This document shows, piece by piece, positions 5,147 to 58,473 of a DNA stretch of 64,000 bases (position 1 is its first letter; every line of letters begins with the position of its first letter). This DNA is from PVC group bacterium (GTDB taxonomy: Bacteria; Verrucomicrobiota; Kiritimatiellia; CAIKKV01; CAITUY01). The notes under the pieces were generated by a model. The model saw nothing but the letters and a program-made list of their open reading frames with translations. It did no database searches and had not been told where the DNA came from. The stretch lies in the NCBI GenBank assembly GCA_945890715.1, contig CAMDCX010000004.1, positions 6,157 through 70,156 on the forward strand. The letters run 5' to 3'. The position numbers were made by a program, and so were the translations under genes.

Positions 5147-5152
5147 GAACTA

Positions 5153-6571: not shown

Positions 6572-6592
6572 GATTACCGATTCCTCAACGAT

Positions 6593-7361: not shown

Positions 7362-7370
7362 AGGCTGCCC

Positions 7371-16486: not shown

Positions 16487-16545
16487 TCGGTTTCAGAAAG
16501 TCGGCCTTTACACACTTAACGCATTGGCACGCAACCTTATATTCC

Positions 16546-17387: not shown

Positions 17388-17391
17388 AGCG

Positions 17392-17616: not shown

Positions 17617-17692
17617 AGACTACCACTCAACCAACAAGAAAACAGCAAATAATGTGTATTTTTTAGCTATTTCTTACATACCGATGAACGGC

Positions 17693-21012: not shown

Positions 21013-21129
21013 TGGCTCATCAACTCCATGCAAACGGCTGGCAGTATTACATGCCCATGAGAGAGAGACAAGAATTCAGGCACAGAGCCACAGTCATTAC
21101 AGCCCATGACCCCATGCGCCGAATTTATT

Positions 21130-31691: not shown

Positions 31692-31704
31692 GAAGGGAAT
31701 ATTA

Positions 31705-33063: not shown

Positions 33064-33080
33064 ATCCGGCCCGGAATAAT

Positions 33081-33193
33081 ATATGGAGTGCGGCGGCTTG
33101 ACGCCGCTTTCACAAGGCCTGGCTTGACAGGCCGACACACGGCGCGTCAAGCCGCGCCTCAGAAAAGCGGCGTCAAGCCGCCGCACTCCATAT
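33081..33193. repeat. Composite palindromic (REP/BIME-like) element; probable bidirectional terminator
   Basis: A perfect 30-nt inverted repeat, ATATGGAGTGCGGCGGCTTGACGCCGCTTT (33081-33110) with its reverse complement at 33164-33193. Between the arms are two further GC hairpins, each carrying CTTGAC/GTCAAG. It sits between convergent genes. Confidence 0.7.
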
Positions 33194-34335: not shown

Positions 34336-34492
34336 AGTTCTACAATCCCTTTGTCGTTCATCCGGTTGAATTGGCGGCGAGTATTACAAACCGCCTTTCT
34401 GGAAACAAGAAACAATGAATCCGCAGTTTTTGACATCCCCCACCCCTTTGTGGTAGCTATTCACGATCAAAAAACGGAACAGTAAGGACGTT

Positions 34493-37632: not shown

Positions 37633-38949
37633 CTAGAAACTACAGCTGCCATCTGAACTGAGCATTTTCTTTCTGGAATTCAGATTCAACAACAAGGGAA
37701 TCAGCTTCATGCGGTGACGACGGGTGTAACGCCGCACAATAGAGCCTATCGAATAGAATCGCTTATTAGCCTGTTTGACCAGTGCATCCGAAATACACGG
37801 TTTGTCGGAATATTTGACCAGCGACCGGATTCCTGTTCCGAGGTGGAGCCACCACTGATTATCAACAAGTTGATTCCGCTCCTTCATTCGCCCGAACAAG
37901 GCGGTTCCCGGAAAGGGCGTCAGGCGGAAAAAAGCGGCCAGATCCACTTTATTCTGAATCAGAAAATTCACCGTTGAGTCCACGGTGCGGGAATCGTCGT
38001 GCTCCAGTCCGAACATGATGCTGGCATACACTCCGATCGAGTGCTTGCGGAGCATCCGGATCAGATTGGCGTATTCATCCGGCTTGTTGAATTGCTTATT
38101 GAATTCAGCGAGACTGCGGGGATCAAGACTCTCCACCCCGATAAACGCCATGAAACATCCCGCCCGGGCGGTTGCCCGGACCAATTCATCCCTCTGGCGG
38201 GCCGTGGTATCGATCTGGCACATGAACCGGATTTTCAGCGGCTCCAGAGCTTCGCAAAGCTCCTGAGTTCTTTTGGGATTGGCAAAAAAATTGTCATCCG
38301 TGAAGAAAATAGCCCGCCCTTTGCTGGCCTTGATTTCGGCAACCACCTCCGGAATCGGACGGAACCGGATCCGTTTCCCCCAGAACCGGGTCACACTGCA
38401 GAAATCACAATTATGGGGACACCCGCGCGTCGTCTGAACCGGCAGCATGGGAAGATCGCTGAACGGAAGTTTGACATAGCGATCCGCCGCGATCAGATCG
38501 TAACGGGGAAAAGGCAGTCCTTCCAGAGACTCACGCGCCGGGCGATTGTACGATTTCTGGAGCGTTCCGCGTTCGACATCCGCCAGCAACTCAGGCCAGG
38601 AATCCTCGGCCTCCCCCAGCACCAGCGCATCCACGTGCTCCATGGCCTCTTCGGGAAGTGTTGAGGCATGGATTCCGCCCATGACAACCTTCACTCCGCG
38701 GCGACGGTACTCGTCCGCAATTTCATAGGCGCGCCGGATATTGATACTGGTGGACGTGATGCCGACCAAATCCACAGGGTCATCAAAATTGAGCGTCTGG
38801 ATCGCCTCATCCACAACGGACACCCCATGGTGCGGCGGCACAAGGCCAGCCAGAAAAAGCGGTGTTAACGGCGGCATCATCGCTTTCGCCGGTCGAAACA
38901 GGTCTCCGTCGGGGGTATAGAACGTCGGACAAATTAATTTGATCTTCAT
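37633..38949 (-). CDS. B12-binding-domain (class B) radical SAM protein
   Basis: N-terminal B12-like Rossmann region ('DLVGITSTS..', 'VVMGGIHAS'), the cluster motif 'TTRGCPHNCDFCS', 'FIGVES', and a C-terminal DUF4070-like tail. Confidence 0.85.
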   Translation of the reverse strand: MKIKLICPTFYTPDGDLFRPAKAMMPPLTPLFLAGLVPPHHGVSVVDEAIQTLNFDDPVDLVGITSTSINIRRAYEIADEYRRRGVKVVMGGIHASTLPEEAMEHVDALVLGEAEDSWPELLADVERGTLQKSYNRPARESLEGLPFPRYDLIAADRYVKLPFSDLPMLPVQTTRGCPHNCDFCSVTRFWGKRIRFRPIPEVVAEIKASKGRAIFFTDDNFFANPKRTQELCEALEPLKIRFMCQIDTTARQRDELVRATARAGCFMAFIGVESLDPRSLAEFNKQFNKPDEYANLIRMLRKHSIGVYASIMFGLEHDDSRTVDSTVNFLIQNKVDLAAFFRLTPFPGTALFGRMKERNQLVDNQWWLHLGTGIRSLVKYSDKPCISDALVKQANKRFYSIGSIVRRYTRRHRMKLIPLLLNLNSRKKMLSSDGSCSF

Positions 38950-39083
38950 GAACCGCTCCTCCGCTAGTCATTCACTCCGGAACTTATTGTTTTACGATCC
39001 CAGTTGCAAGCCGGAGGAATGCGTGTTTCTTGACTTTCCCGCTCAGTTTGTCTTCACTGGGCACTTGCAACGGAGAGAACACC

Positions 39084-40097
39084 ATGCCCCATACTTCATA
39101 CGGGACCTTGTTACAGGGAGAGGCGAATCTGATGGATCGCCAGTTCGAGGCGTTTCAAGCCCAGCCGGTGGATCAGGAATGGATTCCTGAACTCAAGGAG
39201 GCCGATCGTTTTCAGACCACGATCAACCGCCCCATTTCCGTTACCGGCCCCGGCACCTTTTTCGGACGCGCCCAGCGCACCCTCCACCTTGAACCCTCAA
39301 CCACGGGGGGCTGGTGGTTCGATCGCACGGACCTTCGCGACGCCATGCCCATCAAGGTAGCAGCCAACAACGTCTGGACCACCCAGCGCAATATCGTTCT
39401 CTGCAGTGGCTCGCCCCACAACTATATGCGCATGGTAGAACATATCGTCGCCCTGCGCCTCGCCTTGAACGTGGATAACCTGATGATCCGCATGGATTCA
39501 GGCGATCCGCCGCTGTTTAACCGGGGCAGCCTGGATCTCGTGGAGGCCATCGAACAGGCAGGCATCAAAAAAACAAGTCAGCCCACCCATTACGTAACCG
39601 TCAAAAAACCCGTCTCCATGATCGCACCCAACGGGAGTTTTCTCGTGTTCAAACCCTGTACGGACACGGTTCCCGCGCTGAACCTGGATGTCGCTGTTAA
39701 TTTCAAGACCGCGATCGGCAAGCAACGCCTGCGCCTCCGGCTTACCCCGGAAACCGGCCGCTATGGCTCACTGGCGCGCACCAACTGTTCTTTCACGCAG
39801 ATGCTGTTTGCTAAAACCATCGGCAAGCTTTTCGCGGATGTCCGGAACCTCGGCTACACCAACAAGAACATCCTGGTCGCCGGCCGCCGGAGCTATTACA
39901 ACACCCCCACGATGATCCACAACGGAAAGGCGCTGGAAGCCGTCTGGCATCGCGCCATTCTGGATCTGGTGGCGGCCATTGCCCTGATCGACACCGGGCG
40001 GTTCGTCGGCGATGTGTATTCCTATAAAGCCGGCCACACCCTGGATGTGGTGATGGTGCGGAAATTATTTGAAGACAATCTTTTATGCCCTTTATAA
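39084..40097 (+). CDS. LpxC-like zinc deacetylase paralogue (divergent)
   Basis: ATG 39084 with a GGAGAG RBS. It aligns by eye to E. coli LpxC across 'VTGPGTFFGR..L.L.P', 'FDRTDL', 'MVEHIVAL', 'LARTNCSF', 'WHRAILD' and 'YKAGHTL'. Confidence 0.75.
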   Translation: MPHTSYGTLLQGEANLMDRQFEAFQAQPVDQEWIPELKEADRFQTTINRPISVTGPGTFFGRAQRTLHLEPSTTGGWWFDRTDLRDAMPIKVAANNVWTTQRNIVLCSGSPHNYMRMVEHIVALRLALNVDNLMIRMDSGDPPLFNRGSLDLVEAIEQAGIKKTSQPTHYVTVKKPVSMIAPNGSFLVFKPCTDTVPALNLDVAVNFKTAIGKQRLRLRLTPETGRYGSLARTNCSFTQMLFAKTIGKLFADVRNLGYTNKNILVAGRRSYYNTPTMIHNGKALEAVWHRAILDLVAAIALIDTGRFVGDVYSYKAGHTLDVVMVRKLFEDNLLCPL

Positions 40098-40117
40098 TTA
40101 AGGGAAAGGGGTGAGGC

Positions 40118-41791
40118 ATGGCGGCGGGGGAACTGAAACGCTGGCTTCTGGTTAATTATGCGGGGTATCCCTATGCCCCTAATAGTCTGATGCCCGATAA
40201 CGGCCTTGCCAACTTGGCTGGAGCTCTTTTGGCACAGGGATGCGAGGTCGAGATTCTCGACTATTGTACCGTAAGCACGATTCAACGGATGACATCCCCC
40301 GAATTACGCGCGCGTCTTTCGCGCGCCTGGAATACATTACGTGGATCCGACCGGGGCATGACTGCGTCTGTCAGGAAGTTTGCCGCCATCGCATCACTCC
40401 CCGGGGCTGAAAAGGAACGTCGCCGCCTTCAGGATCTGGCGGTAACAGTCATAGGCAATGAACTGGTCAGCCATATCCGGGGAAAAAGCATTGACGCTGT
40501 GGGGTTCAAACTCTGGAACGGCGATGGATTGTCCGAATCAGGGCGGTTGGCCTCCATTCTTCGTAGACAGTTCCCCCGCTTAAAGCTTTTTGGAGGAGGA
40601 CCCCATGTGGATGTGTTTCAGGACCGTATTCTCCGCCACTATCCGGACTTTGATGCCCTCGTCTATGGCGAGGGTGAAGAAACCATCCGTCATCTCGCCC
40701 TCAATGGCGGGGAGAGTTTGTCCTACGGCACAATTCCGAATCTAATCTTCACGACCAACGGCACAATTCAGATTACCGAGGAACGAATGATCGAGGATCT
40801 CGATCAACTCCCCATGCCGGTTTATGACCCGGCCATCTATCCTGCAATGGAGGGACATGACAAGGTCAAGGTCATCGTTATTGATGAAAGTCGGGGATGC
40901 CGAAACGAGTGTGCCTTCTGCATTCATCCGATTAAAAGTCATCGTCGTATCCGGCTTAAGAGCATTCCTCGCCTGCTTCTAGAGGTGAAGGAACTCGACC
41001 GGCGCCATGGTTTCCGTTCCTTCCGCTTCGCCGGCTCCTGTACTCCATATTCTTTACTGAACGAGTTTGCCGCCGGAATCATCCGGGAGAGACTCCCGGT
41101 TCGCTATGCTTCGTTCGCCCACATCCGGGATGCCGAAGAAGCGGATTTCGCGCTGATCAGACAATCCGGAGGGGTGGCGCTTTTCTTCGGCATCGAGTCG
41201 TGTAGTCAAACGCTTCTTGACGGCATGCGAAAACACATCACGATTGCCGCCATTCAGGAAACCCTGAGGCGGTCACACGACGCGGGAATCTTCACGGTTG
41301 GCAGTCTCATTTTTCCAGCACCCGGCGAAACCACCGCAACCGAAGCGGAGACTTTGACCCTGTTGCCCAAGTTGTCCTTAAACGCCTTGATGCTTCAGGC
41401 ACCCATCGTGACGCCACGGACATCATGGTTCGAGGAGCCTGAGCAATACGGGATCGGTATTCCCGACAAGGAGCTTTATCTCGAGATGGGCATGAAGTGG
41501 AAAGTCAAACTGCAACTGCCGCCCCGTTTTTGGGATTCCATTCCACTCTCGATTGGAGGGCGTTCCTTCAAACAGGTATTGGCCAAGGCCGGTGAAATGG
41601 GGCGAAAAATTAGCGGCATGAGCATCCCGACCTCCATTTCAGATGAAACCTACCTCATGAGCCTCAATGCCGGAATGGATCCCGTAAAATTCCGCGACAA
41701 TGCGCTGGCGGCCTTCTATTCCGGCGACACAACGGCCATTCAGGATTTGGTGATAGCCATCAACGGTTCTGGTGCAGAATCTTCCAGATGA
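40118..41791 (+). CDS. B12-binding-domain (class B) radical SAM protein
   Basis: 557 aa. 'ESRGCRNECAFCIHP' is the CxxxCxxC motif, plus 'FFGIESCSQTLLDGMRK'. The N-terminal domain is B12-like. It starts 20 nt after the LpxC-like gene. Confidence 0.85.
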   Translation: MAAGELKRWLLVNYAGYPYAPNSLMPDNGLANLAGALLAQGCEVEILDYCTVSTIQRMTSPELRARLSRAWNTLRGSDRGMTASVRKFAAIASLPGAEKERRRLQDLAVTVIGNELVSHIRGKSIDAVGFKLWNGDGLSESGRLASILRRQFPRLKLFGGGPHVDVFQDRILRHYPDFDALVYGEGEETIRHLALNGGESLSYGTIPNLIFTTNGTIQITEERMIEDLDQLPMPVYDPAIYPAMEGHDKVKVIVIDESRGCRNECAFCIHPIKSHRRIRLKSIPRLLLEVKELDRRHGFRSFRFAGSCTPYSLLNEFAAGIIRERLPVRYASFAHIRDAEEADFALIRQSGGVALFFGIESCSQTLLDGMRKHITIAAIQETLRRSHDAGIFTVGSLIFPAPGETTATEAETLTLLPKLSLNALMLQAPIVTPRTSWFEEPEQYGIGIPDKELYLEMGMKWKVKLQLPPRFWDSIPLSIGGRSFKQVLAKAGEMGRKISGMSIPTSISDETYLMSLNAGMDPVKFRDNALAAFYSGDTTAIQDLVIAINGSGAESSR

Positions 41792-41806
41792 CCCGGGTTC
41801 GCCCTT

Positions 41807-42892
41807 TTATTTTATTCCAACAATGACCCCATGATCCCGGATAAGTTTCTGAACGACTATCTTGCGGAAGCCGACTTCCTTCATCCATGACTCATACTCA
41901 GACCACGTGTAAAGCATGCCTTCACCCGTCGCCAATGTCAGAAAATAGGGAGAGCCCATGGCCGCACTCAGCGGCCCAGTTTCAGTGTCATCCTGCATCA
42001 TATTGAAAATCATGGCGGCTCCTCCCGAAGGGAGCGACTCATAGGCTTTTCGAAGCAGAGCCCTATTCTTGACTTCCGACCAGATGGTCATGAAATGGCA
42101 GAACAAAATGCAGTCCATCCCCGCTGGGAACGGATCTGAGAAACAGTTTCCGGACACGGCATTAAGACGATCCTCAAGCCCGGCTTTCATGATATTGTCA
42201 GTCGCGAGCGCACACACACTGGGCCAATCAAAAACAGACGCCCTGAGCCCGGGATTTCGACTGGCCAGATTGATGATATTGGTCGCATTTCCTCCTCCCA
42301 CATCCAGCACATGTGAAAACCTTGAAAAATCCACCGATTCAACGAGCAAGTGATTCGCCTGTACAGAGATGGTCTGCATCGCATCCTGGAAGATTTTTTC
42401 AAGTTCTGGATTGGCCGACAACCGTTCGTAAAGAGTCGCCCCCTGTCCTGATATTTCATCCAGTCCGACATTCCGATTCCCCCTTAGGGCTTCTCCAAAG
42501 TGGAACATAGCCCGATAGTTAATGAAATGTTGCCACCGGATGACGGCCAGGAAATTCCTGGGATGGTCTGCGTTCAACAGCATATCAGCAAGCCGCGTAT
42601 TCCCATATCGCCCGTCGCGGTGTCGGCGCACCAGCCCTAATGCTGAGCATCCCAGCAAAAGAATTCTAACCGGCTTTTCTGCAATCCCAAGCATGGAGGC
42701 AATCGCCTCCCGACTCAACGGTCCTTTGCGGGCAAGCTGCGTGAACAAGTCCAATTGTACAGCGGCGCTCAAGGTTTGAAAATAGATATGCCCACCCATC
42801 ACCAGGCACACCTGACGAAGTGTGGAGCCAAGGAAAATCCGTTCCCCCGCCCGCGCCATCCAGTTCTTGATCGTATTTTTAAATAGACTCAT
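41807..42892 (-). CDS. Class I SAM-dependent methyltransferase, O-methyltransferase family 2 (CrtF/BchU-like architecture)
   Basis: An N-terminal winged-helix dimerisation region and the SAM motif 'VLDVGGGNATNIINLA'. ATG 42892 is preferred over the GTG at 42910. Confidence 0.85.
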   Translation of the reverse strand: MSLFKNTIKNWMARAGERIFLGSTLRQVCLVMGGHIYFQTLSAAVQLDLFTQLARKGPLSREAIASMLGIAEKPVRILLLGCSALGLVRRHRDGRYGNTRLADMLLNADHPRNFLAVIRWQHFINYRAMFHFGEALRGNRNVGLDEISGQGATLYERLSANPELEKIFQDAMQTISVQANHLLVESVDFSRFSHVLDVGGGNATNIINLASRNPGLRASVFDWPSVCALATDNIMKAGLEDRLNAVSGNCFSDPFPAGMDCILFCHFMTIWSEVKNRALLRKAYESLPSGGAAMIFNMMQDDTETGPLSAAMGSPYFLTLATGEGMLYTWSEYESWMKEVGFRKIVVQKLIRDHGVIVGIK

Positions 42893-42931
42893 CCCATCCC
42901 TCTTCAACACTCTTATGATTTGACAACGAGA

Positions 42932-44104
42932 TCAACCGGCTTGGTGCGGAAGGGCCAGTATTATCCGAGTCCCTTGTCCGGGCTGACTCTCGATTCGGAG
43001 CGTTCCGCCATGCGCTTCTGCCACCTGCCGGGCAATAAACATCCCCAATCCCGTCCCCCCGTGTTTATTTTTCGTGGTGTAAAAAGGCTCACACACTTTC
43101 CGGATCTGATCCTCAGTCATCCCGTGGCCATTATCCTCCACGACAATTTCAACACCCTGTCCACTCTCCCGGCATGCAATTCGAACCCATCCCTTTTTTG
43201 AGTAAACCGCATGAATGGCGTTGGTGACCAGATTTTGGAGCGCGCGGGTCAGTTGAACCTGATCGGCTTCAATCACAGGCTCAGGCGTCCCGATATCCGC
43301 CGACACTTCCACCCCATGTTCCCCCGCCACCACCCGGCCGTCTTTCATAACGAATTGAAGCAAACTCCCCAGTTTCACAGGCGTCCGATGCAGGGAGCCC
43401 CGACTGACATTCAACCACATCTCGGACAGGTTTTTGCACAGCATGGCGTTTTCTTCGATAATCCCGATATAATCCGAGGGATTCTCCTGATTTTGCCCCG
43501 GAGCCCCAGCGGGATTCTTAACCCATTCCGAAAGCAATCCGAGATACCCCATGATTGACGTCAGCGGATTCCTGAGATCATGAACCAATTCCGCCGACTT
43601 CTGTCCCAGCGTGGCCAGCCGCTCATTGCGGACGAGTTCATTTTTAAGGACTTCGTTCATCCGTCCCAAGTCCGTCTCCACATGCTGCCGCCGCCGCTCC
43701 TGCTGGGTGCGCCCAACACGATTCCGGATGATTTCCCGAATTTCGAAGGCATCAAACGGTTTCTTGATGTATTCATTGGCGCCAAGCCGGATCGCCTCCT
43801 GGGCCGTCTCCAAAGCACCAAAGCCGGTAAACATGATGATGGAGACCACTCCGTCAATCTCCCGGATTGCCTTCAGCCCCTCGATCCCATTTTTGCCCGG
43901 CATACGGATATCCATGATCACCGTATCCGGGTGGTGCTCCTTGAGCAGGGCAACGCCCTCGTCCACCGATTCCGCACACAAGACCTGGTACTCCGGCTTC
44001 AGAAGAATCCGGAGGCTTTCCCGCGGCCCGCGCTCATCATCAATGACCAGCACCTTGGGCAGGGCTGCGGGAGCAGCGCCATCAGCCTTAGAAAGTGCGG
44101 ACAT
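42932..44104 (-). CDS. Hybrid receiver-histidine kinase (REC-HisKA-HATPase, no TM)
   Basis: REC motifs 'KVLVIDDE..' and 'VIMDIRMPG', an H-box 'LVHDLRNPLTS', and G-boxes 'DNGHGM' and 'GGTGLGMFIA'. Confidence 0.88.
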   Translation of the reverse strand: MSALSKADGAAPAALPKVLVIDDERGPRESLRILLKPEYQVLCAESVDEGVALLKEHHPDTVIMDIRMPGKNGIEGLKAIREIDGVVSIIMFTGFGALETAQEAIRLGANEYIKKPFDAFEIREIIRNRVGRTQQERRRQHVETDLGRMNEVLKNELVRNERLATLGQKSAELVHDLRNPLTSIMGYLGLLSEWVKNPAGAPGQNQENPSDYIGIIEENAMLCKNLSEMWLNVSRGSLHRTPVKLGSLLQFVMKDGRVVAGEHGVEVSADIGTPEPVIEADQVQLTRALQNLVTNAIHAVYSKKGWVRIACRESGQGVEIVVEDNGHGMTEDQIRKVCEPFYTTKNKHGGTGLGMFIARQVAEAHGGTLRIESQPGQGTRIILALPHQAG

Positions 44105-45353
44105 AGGATACGCTCATGAGATGCGAGGTGGTTTCGTAAGTCCCGTTATACGCGGGATTCTGATCCTTCATCACGTCGCGATCTCCGATGAAGCTATAGC
44201 CGTAGGCAAGATCAATCCGATCCGGACCACGATGCCAGCCGGTTCCCAGCGTGACAACATGCCGGTCTGCATCGGGAAGTGTGGGAGCCAAAGTTTCTTC
44301 AGGCACCGGGCTCTGAAGGAAGATATAACCGGCGCGCAACGTTATCGCCTCGGCAACTTTCCAATCCGCCCCCAATCCAAACGTCCACGTATCCTTCCAA
44401 TTCTGACGCACCACCAGAGGCGCGCGGGGATTCGGGGAGGTCGGGCCATTTAACAGCGGATTGCTGTTGCCCGCATCAAGAGTCAGGGAGTCATACCGCG
44501 AGAACTCAATCCACTCCACATTCGCCTCGACCCTGACCGTATCGGACAACTCAATGCCATAACCAAGTCCCACGATGGTCGGAAACTCGATGGAGGATTC
44601 AAAATCACTCGAGGAACTCATTCCCATCGCCTGCGCCCCACTGAACTCACCGTCGCCCTCAAAGTCCACTTTGACCGGCGACCGGTACGTCAGGGCCAGA
44701 GACTGGGTCTTGGTCGGGCGAACCGTCACGGCGGCATTTCCGCCCACACCCGTTCCATCCCCCTGAAGATGCGCGGTCCCATCCGGCATGGCACCGCCTG
44801 TGAGCAGGGACCATGGCAGAACCTGCTTCATATCCAGCCGCGACAGATACACATCCAAACCGGCGGCAACCGAAACTTTTTCACCCAGCTTGGTCGCCAG
44901 AGTGGGATTGACATTGATTACCGTCAATTCCGCCGAGTAGGGCGCGGTGTAGCGAAACGCACCGGTTTTGTCCCAAACCGTAGACTGTCCGAACGGGCTC
45001 GTAATCCCCAAGCCGGCGGTAACGTTATGGTCCGATGAGGGCAATGCCATAAAAAGATTCGGAAGAAACTTCCAGGAATCTTCGGTTGAGGCCGTTCCCA
45101 TCGGCGAATGAAACTTGGTGCTCGTGTTAATGATCGTGACCGAGCCCATTGCCTGAGCTTCCTTGATTTCTGTCAGGTTGGCCGGATTGTGCTCCACCGC
45201 CGAAGCATCATCCACCTGGGCAATTTTTCCACCCACCCGTCCCAGGGCTTCCGCCCCGGCTGGTGGATTCCGAAATCCATTCGCCAATCCCAACGACCCC
45301 GCACACACTATAGACAGCCCAGTCATCACACCACTGTATCTTGTCATCTTCAT
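44088..45353 (-). CDS. FadL/TodX-family outer-membrane channel for hydrophobic compounds
   Basis: ATG 45353 with an AAAGGAG RBS and a signal peptide. 'GFRNPPAGAEALGRVGGKIAQVDDASAVEHNPANL' resembles the FadL N-terminal hatch. C-terminal '..SVSYVRTF'. It overlaps the next gene by 17 nt. Confidence 0.78.
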   Translation of the reverse strand: MKMTRYSGVMTGLSIVCAGSLGLANGFRNPPAGAEALGRVGGKIAQVDDASAVEHNPANLTEIKEAQAMGSVTIINTSTKFHSPMGTASTEDSWKFLPNLFMALPSSDHNVTAGLGITSPFGQSTVWDKTGAFRYTAPYSAELTVINVNPTLATKLGEKVSVAAGLDVYLSRLDMKQVLPWSLLTGGAMPDGTAHLQGDGTGVGGNAAVTVRPTKTQSLALTYRSPVKVDFEGDGEFSGAQAMGMSSSSDFESSIEFPTIVGLGYGIELSDTVRVEANVEWIEFSRYDSLTLDAGNSNPLLNGPTSPNPRAPLVVRQNWKDTWTFGLGADWKVAEAITLRAGYIFLQSPVPEETLAPTLPDADRHVVTLGTGWHRGPDRIDLAYGYSFIGDRDVMKDQNPAYNGTYETTSHLMSVSYVRTF

Positions 45354-45399
45354 AGCTATTTCTCCTTTGTTTAGTGTCCCCCAATGGCCAATTTTGATT

Positions 45400-45415
45400 A
45401 GCATCGAGAGTGCCA
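45400..45415 (-). promoter_or_regulatory. Sigma-54 (-24/-12) promoter for the FadL-like/REC-HK/OMT operon
   Basis: The minus strand reads TTGGCACTCTCGATGCTA, against the consensus TGGCAC-N5-TTGCW, with GG and GC at the correct spacing. It is about 47 nt upstream of ATG 45353. An NtrC-type activator is encoded 6 kb away. Confidence 0.6.
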
Positions 45416-45591
45416 AGTCATTTTAATCAATATATTGTGGATAAACTAACCCTGACACCACGTATATAGCGTGCCGCACAATTATGTACAGATCAATTCC
45501 GAACAGTTGTCCATTAATGTACATTTCCTGTTAATAATTATTGCGTTTTTTCGAGACTTATGCACAATTCCGTTAAGTTCAATTTTTCACT

Positions 45592-46851
45592 ATGGAGACA
45601 ACCCGAATAGTGAGCCGGAATAGAGTGGTGGTGACCGGCCTTGGTGTGGTAGCGCCCAATGGAATCGGGAAGGAGGCCTTTTGGTCTTCCCTGCTTGAAT
45701 GCCGAAGCGGTATTAAAAACATCACCCTTTTTGATGCCAGCAAACACTCCTGCCGAATTGCGGGGGAAGTGAGCGACTTTGATGCGGCACGTCATGTGGG
45801 TCCCGGAATTAACCCGAAACGCCTCGCCCGCCAGACCCAAATGGCGCTCGCCGCTACCGCCCAAGCTTTTCAGGACGCCAATTTATCCCGCGAAACCTTG
45901 ATCTCAGACAAGGCGGTGCCCCTAGTCCTGGGCGTCAGTTCCAGTGCCATCGAAATCATCGAGCACGGAATGGAAAGGATGGCCGGGCTGGGGCCCACCC
46001 GGGTTCCCGCACACATCGTCAATGCCTGTCAACCTCATCAAGCCGCCAGCACCATCGCCCTGCACTTTCCGCTACTCACCCGTGCCACAACCATGGCCTC
46101 GGCGTGTGCGGCAGGCCTCGACGCAATCGGGGCGGCCGCAGACCTGATCCGAAGTGGCCGCGCCGATGTCGTGGTCTGCGGAGGGACTGACGCGCCCATC
46201 AACCCCCTGACGTTTGCATGTCTGGCAAAGGCAGGCCTGGTTTCATTGCGCAATGAAACCCCTGAAAAAGCCAGCCGCCCCTTCGATGCAGATAGCGACT
46301 CGGGCGTCATTTCCGAAGGCGCGGGAATCGTAATTCTTGAAAGCCTCGCCCATGCCACCGCCCGAAACGTCAAACCCTATCTCGAAATTACCGGGTTCGC
46401 CACGCGTTATGACACAGATCCTGCAGTCTCGGGATCAGGTTTCGGTGCCACCATGACCGAAGCACTGGCCAATGCGGGCCGACGCCCCTCGACGGTGGAC
46501 TACATCTGTGCGCATGGCCCCGGCCATCCGGTTATGGATCGTAATGAAACCCGCATGATCAAGACCGTGTTCGGGGCGCTTGCCTACACAATCCCCATCA
46601 GTTCCATCAAGGGCGTCACCGGCAATCCCCTCGCCGCCGCAGGCCCCTTTCAGCTCATCGCCTGCTCCCTCGCCATTCGCAACGGAATGATCCCTCCCAC
46701 TGCAAATCTCGAAAAGGCGGATCCTGACTGTGACCTTCATTACACCCCCAAAACTCCATGCGCCTCACGCCTGAACTGTATTCTGGTGAATTCACACGGG
46801 TTGGGAGGCGGAAATAGCTGCCTTATCCTGGAAAGGGTTCCCCCCTCATGA
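45592..46851 (+). CDS. FabF-like beta-ketoacyl synthase with a Cys-His-Asn active-site pattern
   Basis: 'VVVTGLGVVAPNG', active-site 'ASACAAG' and 'CAHGPG'. The block equivalent to FabF 'KSMTGH' reads 'KGVTGN'. C-terminal 'NSHGLGGGN'. Confidence 0.88.
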   Translation: METTRIVSRNRVVVTGLGVVAPNGIGKEAFWSSLLECRSGIKNITLFDASKHSCRIAGEVSDFDAARHVGPGINPKRLARQTQMALAATAQAFQDANLSRETLISDKAVPLVLGVSSSAIEIIEHGMERMAGLGPTRVPAHIVNACQPHQAASTIALHFPLLTRATTMASACAAGLDAIGAAADLIRSGRADVVVCGGTDAPINPLTFACLAKAGLVSLRNETPEKASRPFDADSDSGVISEGAGIVILESLAHATARNVKPYLEITGFATRYDTDPAVSGSGFGATMTEALANAGRRPSTVDYICAHGPGHPVMDRNETRMIKTVFGALAYTIPISSIKGVTGNPLAAAGPFQLIACSLAIRNGMIPPTANLEKADPDCDLHYTPKTPCASRLNCILVNSHGLGGGNSCLILERVPPS

Positions 46852-49343
46852 CTCTGATTTCCATCGCCCATTTCCTGGGCATTGCGATCAGCTTTTTCAT
46901 AGGGGTCTTCGTCTTCTTTACCAATCCGCGCCGAAGGACAAACCAGTTCTTCCTCATGTTGTCTACCCTGCTGACGACCTGGCTGATCTTCATGGCCATA
47001 GGGTTCCTCTTCCCGGACGTCAAAACCGTCGCCATGTGTGTACGCGGCTGCATGATGGCCGGGGCCATGATTCCCCTCTCGTTCGACTGGCTCCGGGTCT
47101 CCATTATACACCCCGAAAAATCCCGGTGGTGGATTCTCACCCAGTCTCCTCTCTGGTTGATGGCCTCGTTGATGTTCGGCGCGGTTTCGCTAACCCATGT
47201 CTTCGTCCTGGGCGCGACCCCCTCCCTCACGGGAGTGGATCTGCACGTCATCCCCGATCCCGTTTATAGTCAAGCTTTCCCGCTTTACAGTGCCTTCCAG
47301 ATCATCAACATGGGACTGCTGATCCACCGGTTTATCGGCGACCTCAGAACGACACGCGGCATCCAGAAAACCGAACTTCAATTCATTCTTCTGGGAAGCG
47401 CCTCCAGTGTCTTCATTGGTATTTTCACCGCACTGGTCATTCCAGTGATTACCGATAACTCCCAATCCGTCCAATTCACCCCCCTGTCCGTCATCTGCCT
47501 GTATGTGGTCATCGCCTATGGAATTGCCACCCGCCGCATCATGGATGTGGCCTATATCATGCGCAGGCTGACCGCCTATGCGCTACTCCTCGTCTATTTG
47601 ATGGCCCTGTATGCAGGCGTCTGGACGCTCCTGAACCGGCTGCTCGAGGCGCTGTGGGTGCCATTCCCATCCGTCTCCTATTTCATCGCCTCTCTGGCGG
47701 TGGCGATTTCCCTGGCGCCTGCCAATGGATTGATGCAGCGGCTTGCCAGCCGCCTGTTTGTACACATCGCCCCCCTCGACATGAATCAGCTCGCGCATTC
47801 CGCCAATACCCTTCTGCGCTCCATCAACAGGATTGACACTTTGCTCGCGGAATTCTCAACCCTGCTCATGTCCACGGTAGGAACGGATCGCGTCTGCATC
47901 CTGATTAATGTCTCCGGAAACCACGAACAATGGTTCCCCATCCCGGAGCGCCCGCCGGGACTCTCCTTCCCTGTGGATAGCCCCCTTCCCGCAATCCTTT
48001 TCCAGACCGAAGGGCCCCTCGTTCCGGAACTCCAGTACCGGGTGAAACCTGAAGCTCACATTAAAAGGGCGTGTCGTCTGCTGGAAGAAAAGGGATTCGC
48101 GGCGGCGATCGGCCTGCGCTCCCAGGAGGGACTGGAGGGTCTCGTCCTTCTCGGCCCACGGCTTTCGGGCACGATCTACGGCACTCCCGAGCAACAGGCC
48201 GTCCAACTTCTCTGCAACCACCTTGCCGTGGCGCTCAATAATGCCCGGCTCTACACCCAGCTTCAGGATGGCAAGATCTACAACGATATTCTGGTCGACA
48301 GCCTGGTCAGCGGGATCATCGCCGCCAATCAGGACGGAAAAATCACCGTCTTCAACCGCGAGGCTCAACGCATCACCCAACTGCCTCTGGACAAGACCGT
48401 AAATCACTCCCTGTTTATCCTCCCCCCCGCCTTGGCGACGCTCCTCACCGACACCATTGCCCACAGCGAAGGATTACGTGATCAGGATATTTCCCTGTCT
48501 CTTCCCTCGGACGCGTCCATTCCCATCCGGGTAAGCAGTGCCGTTTTTTACGGACATTCCGGAAAAATGCTCGGCGCCTTCCTGGTCATCACCGATCTGT
48601 CCACGGTTCGTCAATTGGAACTTCAGGTTCGCCGGACTGATCGCCTGGCCAGCCTGGGAACCCTGGCCGCCGGCATGGCGCATGAAATCAAAAACCCCCT
48701 TGTGTCCATTAAAACCTTCACCCAGCTCCTGCCCGAGCGTTACGACGATGCCGATTTCCGGGATACCTTCTCCTCGCTGGTGGGTGGCGAAGTCAAACGC
48801 ATCGACTCCATCGTCAACCAGCTCCTCCGGTTTTCCCGTCCCTCCAAACCGGTACTGGCACCCTCCTTACTCCACGAAATCCTGAGCAACAGCCTCAAAC
48901 TCATTCAGCAACAGTTACATTCGAAAAACATTCAACTTGTTACGTCATTCACCCTGAACTCTGACCGGATTAACGCCGATGGAGACCAGCTCGGCCAGGC
49001 CCTCATCAACTTCCTTCTGAACGCCATCGAGTCGATGCCGGATGGCGGCACCTTGACGGTCACCACCCAGCACCCCCCCCGCAACGGGGACACGGGAGCC
49101 CGGCACACCCCGACCCTTCAAGTCTCCATCCAGGACACCGGTTCCGGAATTTCTCCTGAAAACCTGTCCCATGTTTTCGACCCGTTCTTCACGACCAAGA
49201 GTCAGGGAACCGGATTGGGTCTTTCGGTGGCTCATGGCATCATTCAGGAGCACAGTGGATGCATTGATATTCAGAGCGAGGTCGGACAGGGCACCACATT
49301 TATCCTGACATTCCCCGTGATCGAGGAGGCAAAACAGTTATGA
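46848..49343 (+). CDS. Sensor histidine kinase (N-terminal 7TM-type domain, GAF, PAS, HisKA, HATPase)
   Basis: About 8 TM segments in the first 300 aa, then a GAF ending '..LAVALNNARLY', a PAS 'SGIIAANQDGKITVFN', an H-box 'AHEIKNPL' and G-boxes 'DTGSGI' and 'GTGLGLSVA'. Its ATG overlaps the KS stop (ATGA). Confidence 0.88.
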   Translation: MTLISIAHFLGIAISFFIGVFVFFTNPRRRTNQFFLMLSTLLTTWLIFMAIGFLFPDVKTVAMCVRGCMMAGAMIPLSFDWLRVSIIHPEKSRWWILTQSPLWLMASLMFGAVSLTHVFVLGATPSLTGVDLHVIPDPVYSQAFPLYSAFQIINMGLLIHRFIGDLRTTRGIQKTELQFILLGSASSVFIGIFTALVIPVITDNSQSVQFTPLSVICLYVVIAYGIATRRIMDVAYIMRRLTAYALLLVYLMALYAGVWTLLNRLLEALWVPFPSVSYFIASLAVAISLAPANGLMQRLASRLFVHIAPLDMNQLAHSANTLLRSINRIDTLLAEFSTLLMSTVGTDRVCILINVSGNHEQWFPIPERPPGLSFPVDSPLPAILFQTEGPLVPELQYRVKPEAHIKRACRLLEEKGFAAAIGLRSQEGLEGLVLLGPRLSGTIYGTPEQQAVQLLCNHLAVALNNARLYTQLQDGKIYNDILVDSLVSGIIAANQDGKITVFNREAQRITQLPLDKTVNHSLFILPPALATLLTDTIAHSEGLRDQDISLSLPSDASIPIRVSSAVFYGHSGKMLGAFLVITDLSTVRQLELQVRRTDRLASLGTLAAGMAHEIKNPLVSIKTFTQLLPERYDDADFRDTFSSLVGGEVKRIDSIVNQLLRFSRPSKPVLAPSLLHEILSNSLKLIQQQLHSKNIQLVTSFTLNSDRINADGDQLGQALINFLLNAIESMPDGGTLTVTTQHPPRNGDTGARHTPTLQVSIQDTGSGISPENLSHVFDPFFTTKSQGTGLGLSVAHGIIQEHSGCIDIQSEVGQGTTFILTFPVIEEAKQL

Positions 49344-51349
49344 CCACTCATGCGTCCTGTTTGCTCTACACCTCAGACACCCCTTGGGCAACCCGCATCG
49401 GCGCCTTCCTATCCCCCCTGATCATGCTTCATCCGCTCGAAACCTCGGCTTCAGTTCAAGGGTTTCTGGAGCAACACCCCACCAGTCTTGTATTGCTCGA
49501 TCTTCAAACAACGGGCGCTCTGGATCTGTTGAGCCTCCTCAACCATCGCTATCCCCATACCTTGGTCATCGTCTTCGGAACCGCCACCTCAGATCCCATG
49601 CTCGAGGCGGAGCGACTTGGCGTTTATGCCCTGGAAACAAGCGATGTAAGTTGCCCCCGATTGACCCATCTTATTCAGCAGGCTCTGGCCCACCTTGCAC
49701 TGGCGGGCGAAAACCGACTCCTCAGGCAGGAAACCCTCAGGCTTAACGCCATGACCGAGGCGACCCAGCGCCTCCCTCTGCCGGACACGGATTCCTCCCT
49801 CGATATCCGGGATTTTTCGGCCGCTTTACGTCATTTTACCCATGTGGAAACCCTTCTGCACCGCCTGGTTGACGAAGTTGCCGGATCGCTTCGGGTTTCC
49901 CGCGTGGGTATTTTTTGCCGCACCCGGGATGTGGCGTCTTACCGGCTTCGGGCAAGCTTGCGTTGCCTTGAATCCTCGTCCACACTGGAGTATTCGGAAA
50001 CCGATCCGCAAGTTCTGTGGCTGGCGATCCATCCCCACGCTGTCACTCGTGCCAATCTTACCCATGTGCGAAATCCCACAACCCGGTTGATGTTGCAGAA
50101 TCTTCTGGATCAAATGGGGGCTGAAATACTGATTCCTCTCCAATCCCGGGATCGGCTTCAAGGCTGGCTCTTTGTGGGAAATCTGGCAACAGGCTTGCCG
50201 TTTGATGACCGGCACCTCCACAAACTCATCACCCTGACCGATTGCGTTTCCACAACACTGGAAAACGCTTTGCTCTATGAGGAAATTACCATTCAAAAGA
50301 CCCTGGCGGAAACGCTCCTGCATTCCATTCCCAACGGGATCATCGCCGTGGATGATGACGGCATTGTCCGGTGGTATAACGACACCGCCCAGAGTCTTCT
50401 CGGCATTCAGGCCGCCGTTGCCATTGGGCGCCCCATTGAGGGACTGGGTAGACGCCTGGCCGACCTGCTTCGACGTACCCTGGGGGAAAGCGGCTCACCC
50501 CAATCGGACGAATGGAGGGAATCCACCACTCAACGCACCTTCACGGCCCGCACCCGCAGATTGTCCTCTCCGGCCCGTTGCCTCGGCGCCGTAGGAGTGA
50601 TTCAGGACATCACGGATCAAAAAAACATGAAGGAAAAGGAGGAGCGCCTGGATCGTGCCACCTTCTGGGCCGAACTCGCGGCCAGCATGTCACACGAGGT
50701 TCGCAATCCCCTCGTCGCCATAAAAACCTTTGCCCAGCTTCTCCCGGAACGCTACCAGGACACGGAATTCCAGCATGAATTCAAGGATCTCGTTTCATCC
50801 GAGGTCGAGCGGTTGAATAGCATCGTGGATCAGATCCATGCCTTCGCCCATCCCCCTGCTCTCACGTTCAAAACCATCCAGCTTCAAGCCTGCATTGCCT
50901 CTGCCTGTGCCCGTGTTTTCCCTTCAGAGCCTCCCTCTAACATCCGTGTCACCGTTTCCGCCCCGGACGCCCTGCCCACCCTCCAGGGCGATGACCGAGC
51001 CCTCATTGAAGCGTTCACCCACATCCTGACAAACTCAAAAGAGGCTCTGACCACCACACCCCATCCGGAAATCACCCTTACCCTGCGTCTTGTTGAGGAT
51101 CCGGAACACTCCCCCGCCATAACCGTCATGTTCAAGGATAATGGACCCGGGATCGCGCCCGACATGCTTGATAAATTGTTTTCGCCGTTCTCCACAACCA
51201 AGGCCCGGGGTCTTGGTCTGGGACTTCCCATCGCTCGCCGAACCATTCTTGACCATAATGGAATCATCACCGTTCACTCCAATGAATTTGGAGTCCTGAT
51301 CACCATTCGGATCCCTCTTGTCTTCCCCCAGTCCGAAGTCCCATCATGA
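49340..51349 (+). CDS. Cytoplasmic histidine kinase (degenerate receiver-like N-terminus, GAF, PAS, HisKA, HATPase)
   Basis: N-terminal 'SLVLLDLQTTGALDLL' is receiver-like but lacks the usual acidic pair. H-box 'SHEVRNPL', G-boxes 'DNGPGI' and 'GLGLGLPIA'. ATGA overlaps at both ends. Confidence 0.85.
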   Translation: MTTHASCLLYTSDTPWATRIGAFLSPLIMLHPLETSASVQGFLEQHPTSLVLLDLQTTGALDLLSLLNHRYPHTLVIVFGTATSDPMLEAERLGVYALETSDVSCPRLTHLIQQALAHLALAGENRLLRQETLRLNAMTEATQRLPLPDTDSSLDIRDFSAALRHFTHVETLLHRLVDEVAGSLRVSRVGIFCRTRDVASYRLRASLRCLESSSTLEYSETDPQVLWLAIHPHAVTRANLTHVRNPTTRLMLQNLLDQMGAEILIPLQSRDRLQGWLFVGNLATGLPFDDRHLHKLITLTDCVSTTLENALLYEEITIQKTLAETLLHSIPNGIIAVDDDGIVRWYNDTAQSLLGIQAAVAIGRPIEGLGRRLADLLRRTLGESGSPQSDEWRESTTQRTFTARTRRLSSPARCLGAVGVIQDITDQKNMKEKEERLDRATFWAELAASMSHEVRNPLVAIKTFAQLLPERYQDTEFQHEFKDLVSSEVERLNSIVDQIHAFAHPPALTFKTIQLQACIASACARVFPSEPPSNIRVTVSAPDALPTLQGDDRALIEAFTHILTNSKEALTTTPHPEITLTLRLVEDPEHSPAITVMFKDNGPGIAPDMLDKLFSPFSTTKARGLGLGLPIARRTILDHNGIITVHSNEFGVLITIRIPLVFPQSEVPS

Positions 51350-52710
51350 AAACCATGCTCATTGTTGACGACGATCGGGGCAGTCGCGAATCCCTTCGAC
51401 AAACATTTTCACGCCTTTACCATACCCGGCTTGCCGAAAATGCCGCCGAGGCTCTCCGGGACTTGAACGCGCATCCCGTGGATATCGTGATGCTGGACGT
51501 GATGATGCCGGGAAAGGACGGGGTTACTTTATTAAAGGAACTGAACGAGCTTTATCCAGGCCTTCCCTGCGTGATGGTTAGTGCCTCACCGGCGGTACGG
51601 CCGGTGGTGGAGGCCATGAAGGCAGGTGCGGGCGACTTTGTCATCAAACCCTTTGACGTGGAGGAAATCCGGCGCATCGTGGCCCGGGTTATTGAGACCA
51701 GCGCCCTACGCCGCCGGGTCGTTATTCTTCAGGACGAAGTGTCCCGGGAACACCCCACCGATGAACTCGTCGGCCAGGCACCGGCCTTCCTTGAAACCCT
51801 CACATCTGTCAAACAGGCTTCAACCAGCAATGCCACCATTTTGATTCAGGGGGAAAGCGGCACCGGAAAAGAACTGATTGCCCGGCGCCTGCATCGGCTC
51901 AGTCCGCGGGCCGATGAACCGTTTATTCCCATCCATTGCTCCGCTCTGCCGGAAACCCTCATGGAGAGTGAATTGTTTGGTCATGAAAAGGGCGCTTTTA
52001 CGGGCGCCGACACCCGCAAGATGGGGCGGTTCGACCTGGCCGGATCCGGAACCCTTTTTTTCGATGAAGTCGGCGAGATGTCGCTGGCCATGCAGGTTAA
52101 ACTGTTGCGAGTACTCCAGGAACGCGAGTATATGCGGCTGGGAGGAACCCAGGTCATCAAGACCCATGCCCGTATTATCACCGCTACGTCGCGGATTCTG
52201 GAAGACGAGGTACGCCTGCACCGGTTCCGGGATGATCTGTATTACCGGCTAAACGTTATTCCCATCACACTCCCGCCTCTCCGTAAAAGGATGCAGGATA
52301 TCCCCCTGCTCGCCCGGCATTTCCTCCGGTTATTCCAGCAAAGCATGAATCATAACGTGCGTGATTTTTCAGCTGAATCTCTGGAAAAACTGGCCGCCTA
52401 TTCCTGGCCGGGCAATATCCGGGAACTCCGCAACATCGTCGAACGAACTCTCGTGCTGCACAGTCGCCAGGAAGTGATCCTTCCTGATCATCTTCCTGAA
52501 TTCATCCAGATAAAATCGATCAGTCTTTCACCCGTTAGACGAGAGGGACTTGATTTGGAAAGCGCCATATCGGCCTGTGAGCGGGAACTGATCCAGGGGG
52601 CACTCCGGGAATCCAAAGGAAACCAAACCCAAGCCGCCCGACAGCTGGGAACCACCCGGCGAATTTTGCGCTACAAAATGGACAAACTGTCACTCAGTGC
52701 CGCATCCTGA
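51346..52710 (+). CDS. Sigma-54-dependent response regulator (NtrC family: REC-AAA+-Fis HTH)
   Basis: REC 'MLIVDDD...VMLDVMMPG', Walker A 'GESGTGKE', the sigma-54 contact loop 'GAFTGA', Walker B 'LFFDEVGE' and HTH 'NQTQAARQLGTTRRILRYKM'. Confidence 0.93.
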   Translation: MKTMLIVDDDRGSRESLRQTFSRLYHTRLAENAAEALRDLNAHPVDIVMLDVMMPGKDGVTLLKELNELYPGLPCVMVSASPAVRPVVEAMKAGAGDFVIKPFDVEEIRRIVARVIETSALRRRVVILQDEVSREHPTDELVGQAPAFLETLTSVKQASTSNATILIQGESGTGKELIARRLHRLSPRADEPFIPIHCSALPETLMESELFGHEKGAFTGADTRKMGRFDLAGSGTLFFDEVGEMSLAMQVKLLRVLQEREYMRLGGTQVIKTHARIITATSRILEDEVRLHRFRDDLYYRLNVIPITLPPLRKRMQDIPLLARHFLRLFQQSMNHNVRDFSAESLEKLAAYSWPGNIRELRNIVERTLVLHSRQEVILPDHLPEFIQIKSISLSPVRREGLDLESAISACERELIQGALRESKGNQTQAARQLGTTRRILRYKMDKLSLSAAS

Positions 52711-58250: not shown

Positions 58251-58473
58251 ATCGAGGCCTCCCCTGCTTGTATCTTGCCTATAACAACTAGCAACGATCG
58301 TTCCAATTCCAGAACACAAAAGAGCTAGATGCTTAACAATCTGATCAACAAGAAGTTAAGAAATCTCAACCGAGGAAAATAAAAGCGACAAGGGAGACAT
58401 TATGACACAGCCAGGGACATTATTTCCCATTCCCTCGGATAATCAATCGGACAAAACGCATCAGTCCTGCGTT

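Follow-up and report, generated by a model that had tools for sequence, protein, structure and literature searches.

Several described systems resemble parts of the locus analysed here. Alpha-hydroxyketone quorum sensing in Vibrio feeds LuxO and sigma-54. In loci of the CqsA/CqsS type, autoinducer-synthase genes adjoin sensor-kinase genes (PMC3566124), and FadL channels take up signal molecules of the long-chain N-acyl-homoserine lactone (AHL) type (PMC9938287) as well as hydrophobic aromatics (PMC7728783). The TodX/TodST and TbuX/TbuT systems place a FadL/TodX-family channel under a dedicated sensor and activator, and in bacteriohopanepolyol cyclitol-ether synthesis (HpnK/HpnJ) a deacetylase gene adjoins a gene for a B12-dependent radical S-adenosylmethionine (SAM) enzyme. 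The locus compared with them lies at 37633-52710 of a 64,000-nucleotide stretch of contig CAMDCX010000004.1 (assembly GCA_945890715.1, a PVC group bacterium of the Kiritimatiellia), which we call the window. It holds ten genes, among them an atypical ketosynthase, three sensor kinases, a FadL-type channel and an NtrC-type activator. Searches of the window open reading frames (ORFs) with Pfam and NCBIfam profiles bore out all ten genes and the domains that a preliminary description of this DNA had assigned to them. With NCBIfam equivalog cut-offs as the measure of family membership, none of the locus enzymes reaches the threshold of a characterised enzyme.

Here, we propose that this locus is a composite, in which a signalling circuit for a hydrophobic small molecule lies beside a resident LpxC-like gene. 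Taken whole, this is the best explanation that we have, and we put it forward tentatively, with a confidence that falls a little short of even. Its parts differ in strength. It is almost certain, from gene order across genomes, that 40118-52710 plus the radical SAM gene at 37633-38949 form an optional accessory module with a divergent-pair core, and that the LpxC-like gene is a clade-wide resident of Kiritimatiellia/Lentisphaeria outside that system. That the module functions as the signalling circuit proposed above is a possibility suggested by analogy, and we hold it with clearly less assurance.

The loci used for comparison (numbered with an L) all derive from metagenome-assembled genomes (MAGs) or metagenomes, are mutually related and have flanks of up to 10 kb; gene presence was scored for counts by tblastn at E <= 1e-8 to 1e-10 with coverage of at least 35-40%, after a stricter first pass. 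Homologues of the LpxC-like zinc deacetylase gene (39084-40097, + strand), at 52% identity or more, are present in 496 genomes counted at species level, whose labels read Kiritimatiellia, Lentisphaerae, Victivallales, Verrucomicrobiota or PVC. The module genes are missing at 49 of the 56 species loci that have at least 6 kb of downstream sequence. Four loci at 82-86% identity (L009, L012, L014, L036) keep the order RluD, LpxC-like protein, GGDEF-HD-GYP protein, ClpB, that is, the flanks of the window, and lack everything from the second radical SAM gene to the activator. Because the LpxC-like gene directly abuts the HD-GYP gene in these genomes, 40118-52710 is a 12.6-kb presence/absence island, whose downstream border is that gene (52690-55242, - strand; REC-GAF-GGDEF-REC-HD-GYP by Pfam). 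The module is also found with no LpxC-like gene within flanks of about 10 kb, in L085-L091, L103/L104 and L161 (the flank upstream of the second radical SAM gene in L103 covers only about 4 kb). At L161 both radical SAM genes stand side by side in divergent orientation, with no LpxC-like gene between them, and the MAG CAZHRU01 carries the LpxC-like gene (L024) and the module (L091) on separate contigs. The LpxC-like proteins encoded beside the module all fall into a single sub-clade of that protein's tree. The deacetylase, which the preliminary description had counted as a component of the system, thus falls away from it, since it mostly occurs without the module and the module also occurs without it.

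What remains has a constant centre. One arm of the core runs from a sigma-54 promoter through the FadL-family channel gene, where present, and a soluble REC-kinase gene to one variable small-molecule enzyme; the other runs from the ketosynthase through a kinase with seven transmembrane (7TM), GAF and PAS regions and a soluble kinase to the NtrC-type activator, where present. Loci were gathered around the ketosynthase by seven look-ups (53-60% identity) and a metagenome scan, in which 80 loci at 46-96% identity to the query were retained from 221 contigs with ketosynthase relatives. Among about 100 loci, which range from Kiritimatiellia of lakes to Chthoniobacterales of soil, about 95% keep the ketosynthase and the three kinases together, and the order of these genes is kept down to 46% ketosynthase identity amid differing flanking genes. 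Of 44 loci, 42 have the 7TM kinase gene immediately after that of the ketosynthase; the soluble kinase is present in 24 of the 25 with enough sequence, and a divergent REC-kinase or FadL gene is found in 43 of 44. Among the 34 metagenome loci with at least 3 kb upstream, 33 have the REC-kinase on a divergent arm upstream of the ketosynthase; in the other samples it is present in all module loci that have a divergent upstream arm (all but L088). The channel gene occurs in every aquatic-type module locus examined except L088, and its product is 90-93% identical in L005-L008. Gene neighbourhoods therefore support the view that the locus contains a conserved sigma-54/NtrC-wired unit (channel, REC-kinase, ketosynthase, two further kinases and activator), with core order kept across about 100 loci. 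They do not support its extension to all ten genes as one pathway, as the LpxC-like, radical SAM and methyltransferase genes are not constant members.

In the window, the three kinases all carry H-boxes. The REC-kinase (42932-44104, - strand) is a REC-HisKA-HATPase protein by Pfam, with the H-box HDLRNP and no transmembrane segments. The membrane kinase (46848-49343, + strand) has an N-terminus with about 7-8 transmembrane segments, then GAF-like, PAS, HisKA and HATPase regions, and its orthologue in L087 scores 48.9 bits against HisKA_7TM (cut-off 28.6). The second soluble kinase (49340-51349, + strand) also lacks transmembrane segments and combines a degenerate REC-like region and a weak GAF match with PAS, HisKA and HATPase. 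The channel protein (44088-45353, - strand; 421 residues) matches Toluene_X over its full length (6.1e-57, profile positions 2-421 of 421), begins with the signal sequence MKMTRYSGVMTGLSIVCAGSLGLANG and belongs by these features to the FadL/TodX family of outer-membrane channels. It scores 79.5 bits against the FadL equivalog model, where 585 is required, and is closer to Escherichia coli FadL (64 bits) than to TodX, TbuX or CymD (22-26 bits).

The soil version of the core is simpler. Its ketosynthases are named Chthoniobacterales or Spartobacteria by NCBI, the same core lies on a 4-Mb contig, and the order is ParA, a protein of about 800 residues and REC-kinase, then, divergently, ketosynthase, kinase, kinase. 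The conserved protein of about 800 residues, which has a weak Lant_dehydr_N match, follows the REC-kinase and is itself followed by the ParA-like ATPase. The channel gene is lacking in soil-type loci L120, L125, L127, L130, L144, L155, L160, L163, L165 and L172, and no NtrC-type gene turned up in the roughly 6 kb that lie downstream of the ketosynthase at loci of the soil type; the activator is present in aquatic-type ones. Channel and NtrC-type gene occur together in 12 loci, are both lacking in 7 and are discordant in 2 (Fisher p of about 5e-4, computed by hand and without correction for phylogeny), and we conclude that the two were added together in aquatic lineages.

The sigma-54 wiring is visible at the promoter. 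The intergenic element TGGCACTCTCGATGCT (45400-45415, - strand) agrees with the -24/-12 consensus at 10 of 11 positions, has the form GG-N10-GC and stands 46 nucleotides upstream of the ATG of the channel gene. Of 41 FadL-type loci, 40 have a site in this position that matches at least 9 of 11 positions, and when six related loci are aligned, the blocks TTGGCA and TGCTA show no variation. It is this conservation of place that singles the element out: across the window, matches with at most two mismatches are about as frequent as chance would have it (32 observed against 31.4 expected), and only three sites reach 10 of 11. Soil-type loci have a related element, GGCACG-N4-YTAGCT, upstream of the REC-kinase. 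The element had been described as the only good -24/-12 promoter, which it is not, because an equally good one, TGGAACGATCGTTGCT (58290-58305, - strand), which is another of these three sites, lies about 40 nucleotides upstream of the true start of clpB (ATG 58249). As the corresponding TGGAACG-N4-TTGCT element also precedes clpB in L009 (10469) and L014 (16314), its conservation suggests that clpB may be sigma-54-dependent in this clade. Scans for sigma-70 promoters and terminators gave matches at chance level, and a scan of the window with Rfam gave no match and no cobalamin riboswitch.

As had been claimed, no scanned ORF of the window encodes a sigma-54 activator apart from the activator gene itself (51346-52710, + strand). 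With REC and AAA+ domains, a receiver Asp, Walker A at residue 169, GAFTGA at residue 216 and HTH_8, the protein is an NtrC-type enhancer-binding protein; it stays below the equivalog cut-offs of AtoC (455 bits against 714), NtrC (420 against 559) and LuxO (317 against 800). Between the two arms, a candidate activator-binding region (upstream activating sequence) at 45476-45584 holds repeated TGTnCA half-sites in direct and inverted orientation, including a 16-bp palindrome, TGTCCATTAATGTACA, at 45508-45523. The half-sites lie about 60-170 nucleotides upstream of the -24 element, in blocks conserved in L005-L008 and partly in L001; we infer, and only infer, that they are candidate binding sites of the activator.

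The ketosynthase (45592-46851, + strand), with N- and C-terminal ketoacyl-synt domains, is the only non-signalling protein of the invariant core. It shares fold and length with FabF/KAS II, and its nearest solved structures are KAS II enzymes. The residues Cys163, His303, Lys335, Asp311 and Glu314 are kept, with Cys163 present in 119, His303 in 113 and Lys335 in 120 of the 120 nearest family members. It differs from FabF in scoring 362 bits against TIGR03150, below the cut-off of 493.75, and in lying outside any fab cluster; because it is absent from close relatives without the island, it is accessory. In place of His340, 104 of the 120 members (and the window protein) have Asn and 16 have Ser, so the Cys-His-His triad is not preserved. 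Thr305 is replaced by Pro, Thr307 by His or Asp and the Phe400 gate mostly by Leu (89/120). The ratio of non-synonymous to synonymous substitution rates (dN/dS) is about 0.1, which indicates purifying selection. These features point to a catalytic site that is probably conserved but altered, and they agree with the earlier remark that the ketosynthase is atypical.

Around this core, the radical SAM enzymes, the methyltransferase and a flavoprotein resembling p-cresol methylhydroxylase (PCMH) are interchangeable accessories. Both radical SAM proteins are class B, as had been claimed, with a B12-binding domain and a CxxxCxxC core. The first (37633-38949, - strand; 438 residues; Pfam B12-binding and Radical_SAM; CPHNCDFC) has as best NCBIfam matches the ladderane-type model (97 bits against 360) and BchE (97 against 481), and an exact-sequence look-up of the protein returned no record. 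It occurs at 85-96% identity in L005, L007, L094 and L161 and most module loci lack it; L022 has a relative of 37% identity immediately upstream of the second enzyme, and in some loci the gene beside the second enzyme is this one, the 37% relative or an unrelated radical SAM gene. The second (40118-41791, + strand; 557 residues; Pfam B12-binding and radical SAM; CRNECAFC) has as its nearest solved structures 9ccb, CysS and TokK, which are B12-dependent radical SAM C-methyltransferases. All Kiritimatiellia-type module loci, and only these, have it, convergent on the FadL operon or REC-kinase; it is absent from L085-L090 and soil loci. The best sigma-70-like match of the region, TTGAAG-18-TATAAT (40069-40098, + strand), which agrees with the consensus although such matches are at chance level, overlaps the stop of the LpxC-like gene 20 nucleotides before this gene, which may have its own promoter.

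The methyltransferase gene (41807-42910, - strand) ends the window's sigma-54 operon. Its family-2 assignment stands (Methyltransf_2 and Dimerisation domains); among enzymes of solved structure it comes closest to the 3-hydroxykynurenine C-methyltransferase SibL (237 bits, E 3.5e-69), and the CrtF/BchU model TIGR02716 gives 79 bits against a cut-off of 276. The gene is present in L006 (91%), L091, L003, L089, L103/104 and L110 and absent elsewhere. In L003 the promoter falls between methyltransferase and channel gene; in L003, L089 and L091 the methyltransferase lies outside the sigma-54 transcription unit, because it is upstream of the sigma-54 site, between the channel and ketosynthase genes. 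The slot after the REC-kinase is filled by a methyltransferase of this type in the window and L006, by the flavoprotein in L085-87, L089, L092, L110, L112 and L113, by a class-I methyltransferase in L090 and L142, by the protein of about 800 residues in the soil type and by nothing in L001 and L005. Among solved structures, those closest to the flavoprotein belong to p-cresol methylhydroxylase and vanillyl-alcohol/eugenol oxidases. Between the window and L007, nucleotide identity is 86-92% in the flanks and 63-68% exactly over 40101-41600, at the second radical SAM gene; the proportion of synonymous differences (pS) in this gene is 0.72, against 0.32-0.41 for its neighbours. L005, L007 and L008 share this drop and lack the methyltransferase, and L006 has the window's type of both genes. 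The radical SAM and methyltransferase cassette (40101-42930) has thus, to judge from these alignments, been replaced by recombination between genomes that are otherwise about 88% identical.

The preliminary description had proposed that a lipid-like or glycolipid molecule is sensed, imported and/or tailored here. Sensing and import of a hydrophobic molecule remain plausible, and tailoring enzymes do stand at the edge of the module; the radical SAM enzymes and methyltransferase are not core, and glycolipid tailoring does not fit the nearest characterised relatives of the variable enzymes, which act on aromatic or phenolic small molecules (SibL, p-cresol methylhydroxylase/vanillyl-alcohol oxidase). 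Several other ideas were pursued and set aside. The second radical SAM enzyme weakly resembles ApyD and the methyltransferase ApyS, which raised the idea of a ribosomally synthesised and post-translationally modified peptide; no conserved precursor peptide was found, and there is no room for one because the intergenic gaps measure only 20, 15 and 21 nucleotides. Analogies with hopanoid (HpnK/HpnJ), BchE, ladderane and glycerol dialkyl glycerol tetraether enzymes were dropped, no equivalog model coming near its cut-off. The esterase in L003 and L022 is a generic tributyrin-type esterase and was rejected as a module enzyme. A recurrent short-chain dehydrogenase/reductase of 314 residues near distant modules is probably a mere neighbour, because it is a sugar enzyme of the UDP-glucuronate-4-epimerase type.

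In light of this core, how might the circuit work? The ketosynthase would draw on housekeeping acyl-acyl carrier protein (acyl-ACP) and either make, or be acylated by, an acyl-derived compound, which the 7TM kinase would sense in the membrane. The 7TM kinase and the soluble kinase would phosphorylate the activator, which would bind the TGTnCA repeats and open the sigma-54 promoter. The induced channel could then let the hydrophobic ligand across the outer membrane as positive feedback, the REC-kinase could serve as relay or feedback, and the variable enzyme could modify the ligand. We prefer a ketosynthase that would make the ligand to one that would report the acyl-ACP state, because of the analogy with CqsA/CqsS-type loci and the uptake of long-chain signals by FadL. 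The system may be of the two-component/sigma-54 signalling kind, possibly quorum-sensing-like. A bolder form of this proposal is doubtful, though worth stating: the Cys-His-Asn ketosynthase would be a new class of autoinducer synthase, its product would be sensed by the HisKA_7TM kinase and relayed via two further kinases to sigma-54, and the product would be imported through the dedicated channel and diversified by swappable radical SAM, methyltransferase or flavoprotein cassettes.

The comparison with CqsA/CqsS (and LqsA/LqsS, JqsA/JqsS) is one of gene architecture only: a gene for an acyl-using enzyme that forms C-C bonds adjoins that of a polytopic membrane histidine kinase whose ligand is, or in the module would be, hydrophobic (PMC3566124). 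As in CqsA/CqsS-LuxO, output is at an NtrC-type sigma-54 activator, which here matches the LuxO model far below its cut-off. The synthase here is a FabF-fold ketosynthase, whereas CqsA is dependent on pyridoxal phosphate (PLP); the kinases are not hybrid kinases with LuxU, and the module adds two soluble kinases, a sigma-54-driven channel and variable tailoring enzymes. With TodX/TodST and TbuX/TbuT, the module shares the sigma-54 promoter directly upstream of the channel gene as well as the dedicated sensor and activator. Unlike them, it lacks a catabolic operon, its channel is nearer FadL and is absent in the soil version, and its core is a ketosynthase with three kinases.

Several observations weigh against this proposal. 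The core contains no dedicated ACP, thioesterase or acyl-activating partner, and for that reason we cannot propose a ketosynthase product. The 7TM kinase stays at 85-92% identity while the second radical SAM enzyme falls to 63-68%; as the sensor does not co-vary with the cassette, the radical SAM enzyme and methyltransferase are unlikely to set the specificity for the sensed ligand. The second radical SAM gene runs convergently to the sigma-54 operon and lacks its own sigma-54 site, so any regulation of it by the system is hypothetical. Neither the channel gene nor, within about 6 kb downstream of the ketosynthase, an NtrC-type gene was found near the Chthoniobacterales core, which can therefore do without uptake. 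The evidence comes from sequence alone, and the loci, being from MAGs and metagenomes, are not phylogenetically independent. Lastly, the separation of the LpxC-like gene is not without friction: in the window it is flanked on both sides by radical SAM genes of the module, it lies 20 nucleotides from the second on the same strand, and this adjacency is kept in 12 loci in three different upstream contexts (beside MreB in L001, SurA in L003 and RluD in the window), which leaves a small residual probability of a lineage-specific functional link.

This adjacency, together with the intact LpxC catalytic residues, is also what favours the model of the preliminary description, in which all ten genes form one lipid or glycolipid import and tailoring pathway, the LpxC-like enzyme deacetylating an acylated sugar and the B12-dependent radical SAM enzymes rearranging or methylating the product. 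We regard it as very unlikely. The LpxC-like gene is clade-wide and mostly without the module, the module also occurs without it (as in L161 and the split contigs L024/L091), and its adjacency is confined to one sub-clade. The HpnK/HpnJ comparison on which the model drew goes no further than a deacetylase gene beside a radical SAM gene; it is removed because the two are separable, and the radical SAM enzymes score 82 and 76 bits against the HpnJ cut-off of 577.6. No hopanoid or lipid A genes were found among the scanned window ORFs. HpnK is a different deacetylase family from LpxC. Chance juxtaposition of unrelated genes would agree with the chance-level count of sigma-54-like matches across the window and with the variability of the first radical SAM gene and the methyltransferase. 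For the core it is refuted by the order kept in about 100 loci with differing flanks and by the conserved promoter position, and for the locus as a whole it is barely credible.

The rival with most support, although we still consider it unlikely, is inducible uptake and transformation, catabolic or detoxifying, of a hydrophobic compound from outside, for example an alkylphenol or other phenolic, or a long-chain fatty acid. Sensing of the compound would fall to the 7TM kinase, NtrC and sigma-54 would induce the channel and a modifying enzyme (methyltransferase or 4-alkylphenol oxidoreductase), and the ketosynthase would be a metabolic helper, a design like that of TodX/TodST and TbuX/TbuT. Sigma-54/NtrC-family control is common for FadL-type channels. 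The induced operon indeed holds a FadL-family channel gene with, at its 3' end, a SibL-like methyltransferase, a flavoprotein like PCMH or vanillyl-alcohol oxidase, or neither (L001, L005), and FadL channels do import aromatics (PMC7728783). A sensor that does not co-vary with the cassette would also fit enzymes that are outputs and not signal makers. This rival explains the variable enzymes well and the invariant ketosynthase poorly: the constant partner of the kinases is the ketosynthase, which has no obvious catabolic role, and not the channel or the modifying enzymes. No locus has a downstream catabolic pathway, the soil version lacks the channel, and the window's channel is nearer the fatty-acid FadL than TodX/TbuX. 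The ketosynthase takes the central place if it is instead a non-biosynthetic trigger enzyme that reports the acyl-ACP/malonyl-ACP pool through acylation of its Cys, modulates the co-translated kinases and so tunes fatty-acid scavenging by FadL and envelope or biofilm functions. Its gene is strictly in one operon with the kinase genes and, for the most part, coupled to them in translation; it keeps the acyl-accepting Cys and Lys, whereas His340, which is linked to decarboxylation, Thr305/307 and the Phe400 gate are all altered; the core lacks ACP or any other biosynthetic partner; and the channel is nearest to the long-chain fatty-acid transporter. The variable methyltransferase, flavoprotein and radical SAM genes are then unexplained, and an Asn in place of His340 still allows catalysis, as the triads of KAS III and type III polyketide synthases show. 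We know of no precedent for a ketosynthase as co-sensor of a kinase, and judge this reading improbable.

If our proposal of a signalling circuit is right, the module would be a conserved regulatory device of a large, little-studied and mostly uncultured group (Kiritimatiellia, Lentisphaeria, Chthoniobacterales), in which three histidine kinases are hard-wired to a condensing enzyme whose active site is altered, and a candidate for small-molecule signalling in PVC bacteria. It would give the HisKA_7TM sensor domain its first functional context and define a new ketosynthase subfamily; in the stronger form, it would be the first system of cell-cell or lipid-derived signalling to be described from Verrucomicrobiota/PVC bacteria. 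The parts belong to ordinary families. Their combination (a Cys-His-Asn FabF-fold enzyme, three kinases, a sigma-54-driven channel and swappable enzymes) was not found in the papers searched, nor did the literature searched contain a description of the module or, in agreement with the preliminary description, a pathway with this gene set. The locus also illustrates how synteny analysis can take apart what looks like a biosynthetic cluster: here the LpxC-like gene proved to be just a neighbour, and the genes for the radical SAM enzymes and the methyltransferase proved interchangeable.

The LpxC-like neighbour is of interest in its own right. The protein matches the Pfam LpxC domain end to end (1.3e-35), and E119-H120, H289, D294 and H318, invariant in 16 family members, align to the zinc-binding and catalytic residues E77/H78, H237, D241 and H264 of Pseudomonas aeruginosa LpxC. 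It differs from LpxC in about 43 extra N-terminal residues, in having GPGTFFGRA in place of GxGLHSG, in its lack of lipid A neighbour genes and in a score of 86 bits against the LpxC equivalog TIGR00325 (cut-off 187.25). Its family is thus a distinct, highly conserved subfamily of about 340 residues with intact catalytic residues, and dN/dS is about 0.08. No second LpxC-like gene was found at any locus examined, within flanks of up to 10 kb. On sequence grounds the family would be either a very divergent housekeeping LpxC or else an unrecognised paralogue.

Gene boundaries fit the described layout. The LpxC-like gene starts at ATG 39084, giving 337 residues and matching homologue length (the mechanical ORF begins at TTG 39030), the channel gene starts at ATG 45353 behind the ribosome-binding site AAAGGAGA, and the probable start of the methyltransferase gene is ATG 42892. 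With that start the reported spacings are reproduced, namely an overlap of 17 nucleotides between the channel and REC-kinase genes and a gap of 39 between the REC-kinase and methyltransferase genes. The reported ATGA overlaps of the plus-strand chain lie at 46848 (ketosynthase/7TM kinase), 49340 (7TM kinase/soluble kinase) and 51346 (soluble kinase/activator).

Some genes recur beside the module. The REC-GGDEF-HD-GYP gene adjoins it, after the NtrC-type gene, in L091, L093, L100 and L105 as in the window, and its product is, speculatively, a possible phosphorylation target. Exopolysaccharide export genes (Poly_export/SLBB, BBP2 porin, Wzz/GNVR, sugar transferase) lie beside it in L090 (1-6000), L130 (17101-19113) and L172 (17538-21245). 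There are hints here of a link between the module and surface polysaccharide or cyclic di-GMP control.

Elsewhere, the window contains a complete type I restriction-modification system (13262-21033, - strand; HsdR 13262-16486, HsdS 17693-18991, HsdM 18925-21033) and an AbiEii-like toxin fragment (2552-3148, + strand). Three PLP-dependent decarboxylase genes of the Orn/DAP/Arg type and a saccharopine-dehydrogenase-like gene, beside dapA at 30588-35734, look like a lysine plus (carboxy)spermidine-type polyamine set. A phosphate-acquisition cluster at 392-8447 comprises a PstS-like binding protein, a porin, a PhoR/PhoB-like pair, a PhoU-like protein and a PitA-type transporter.

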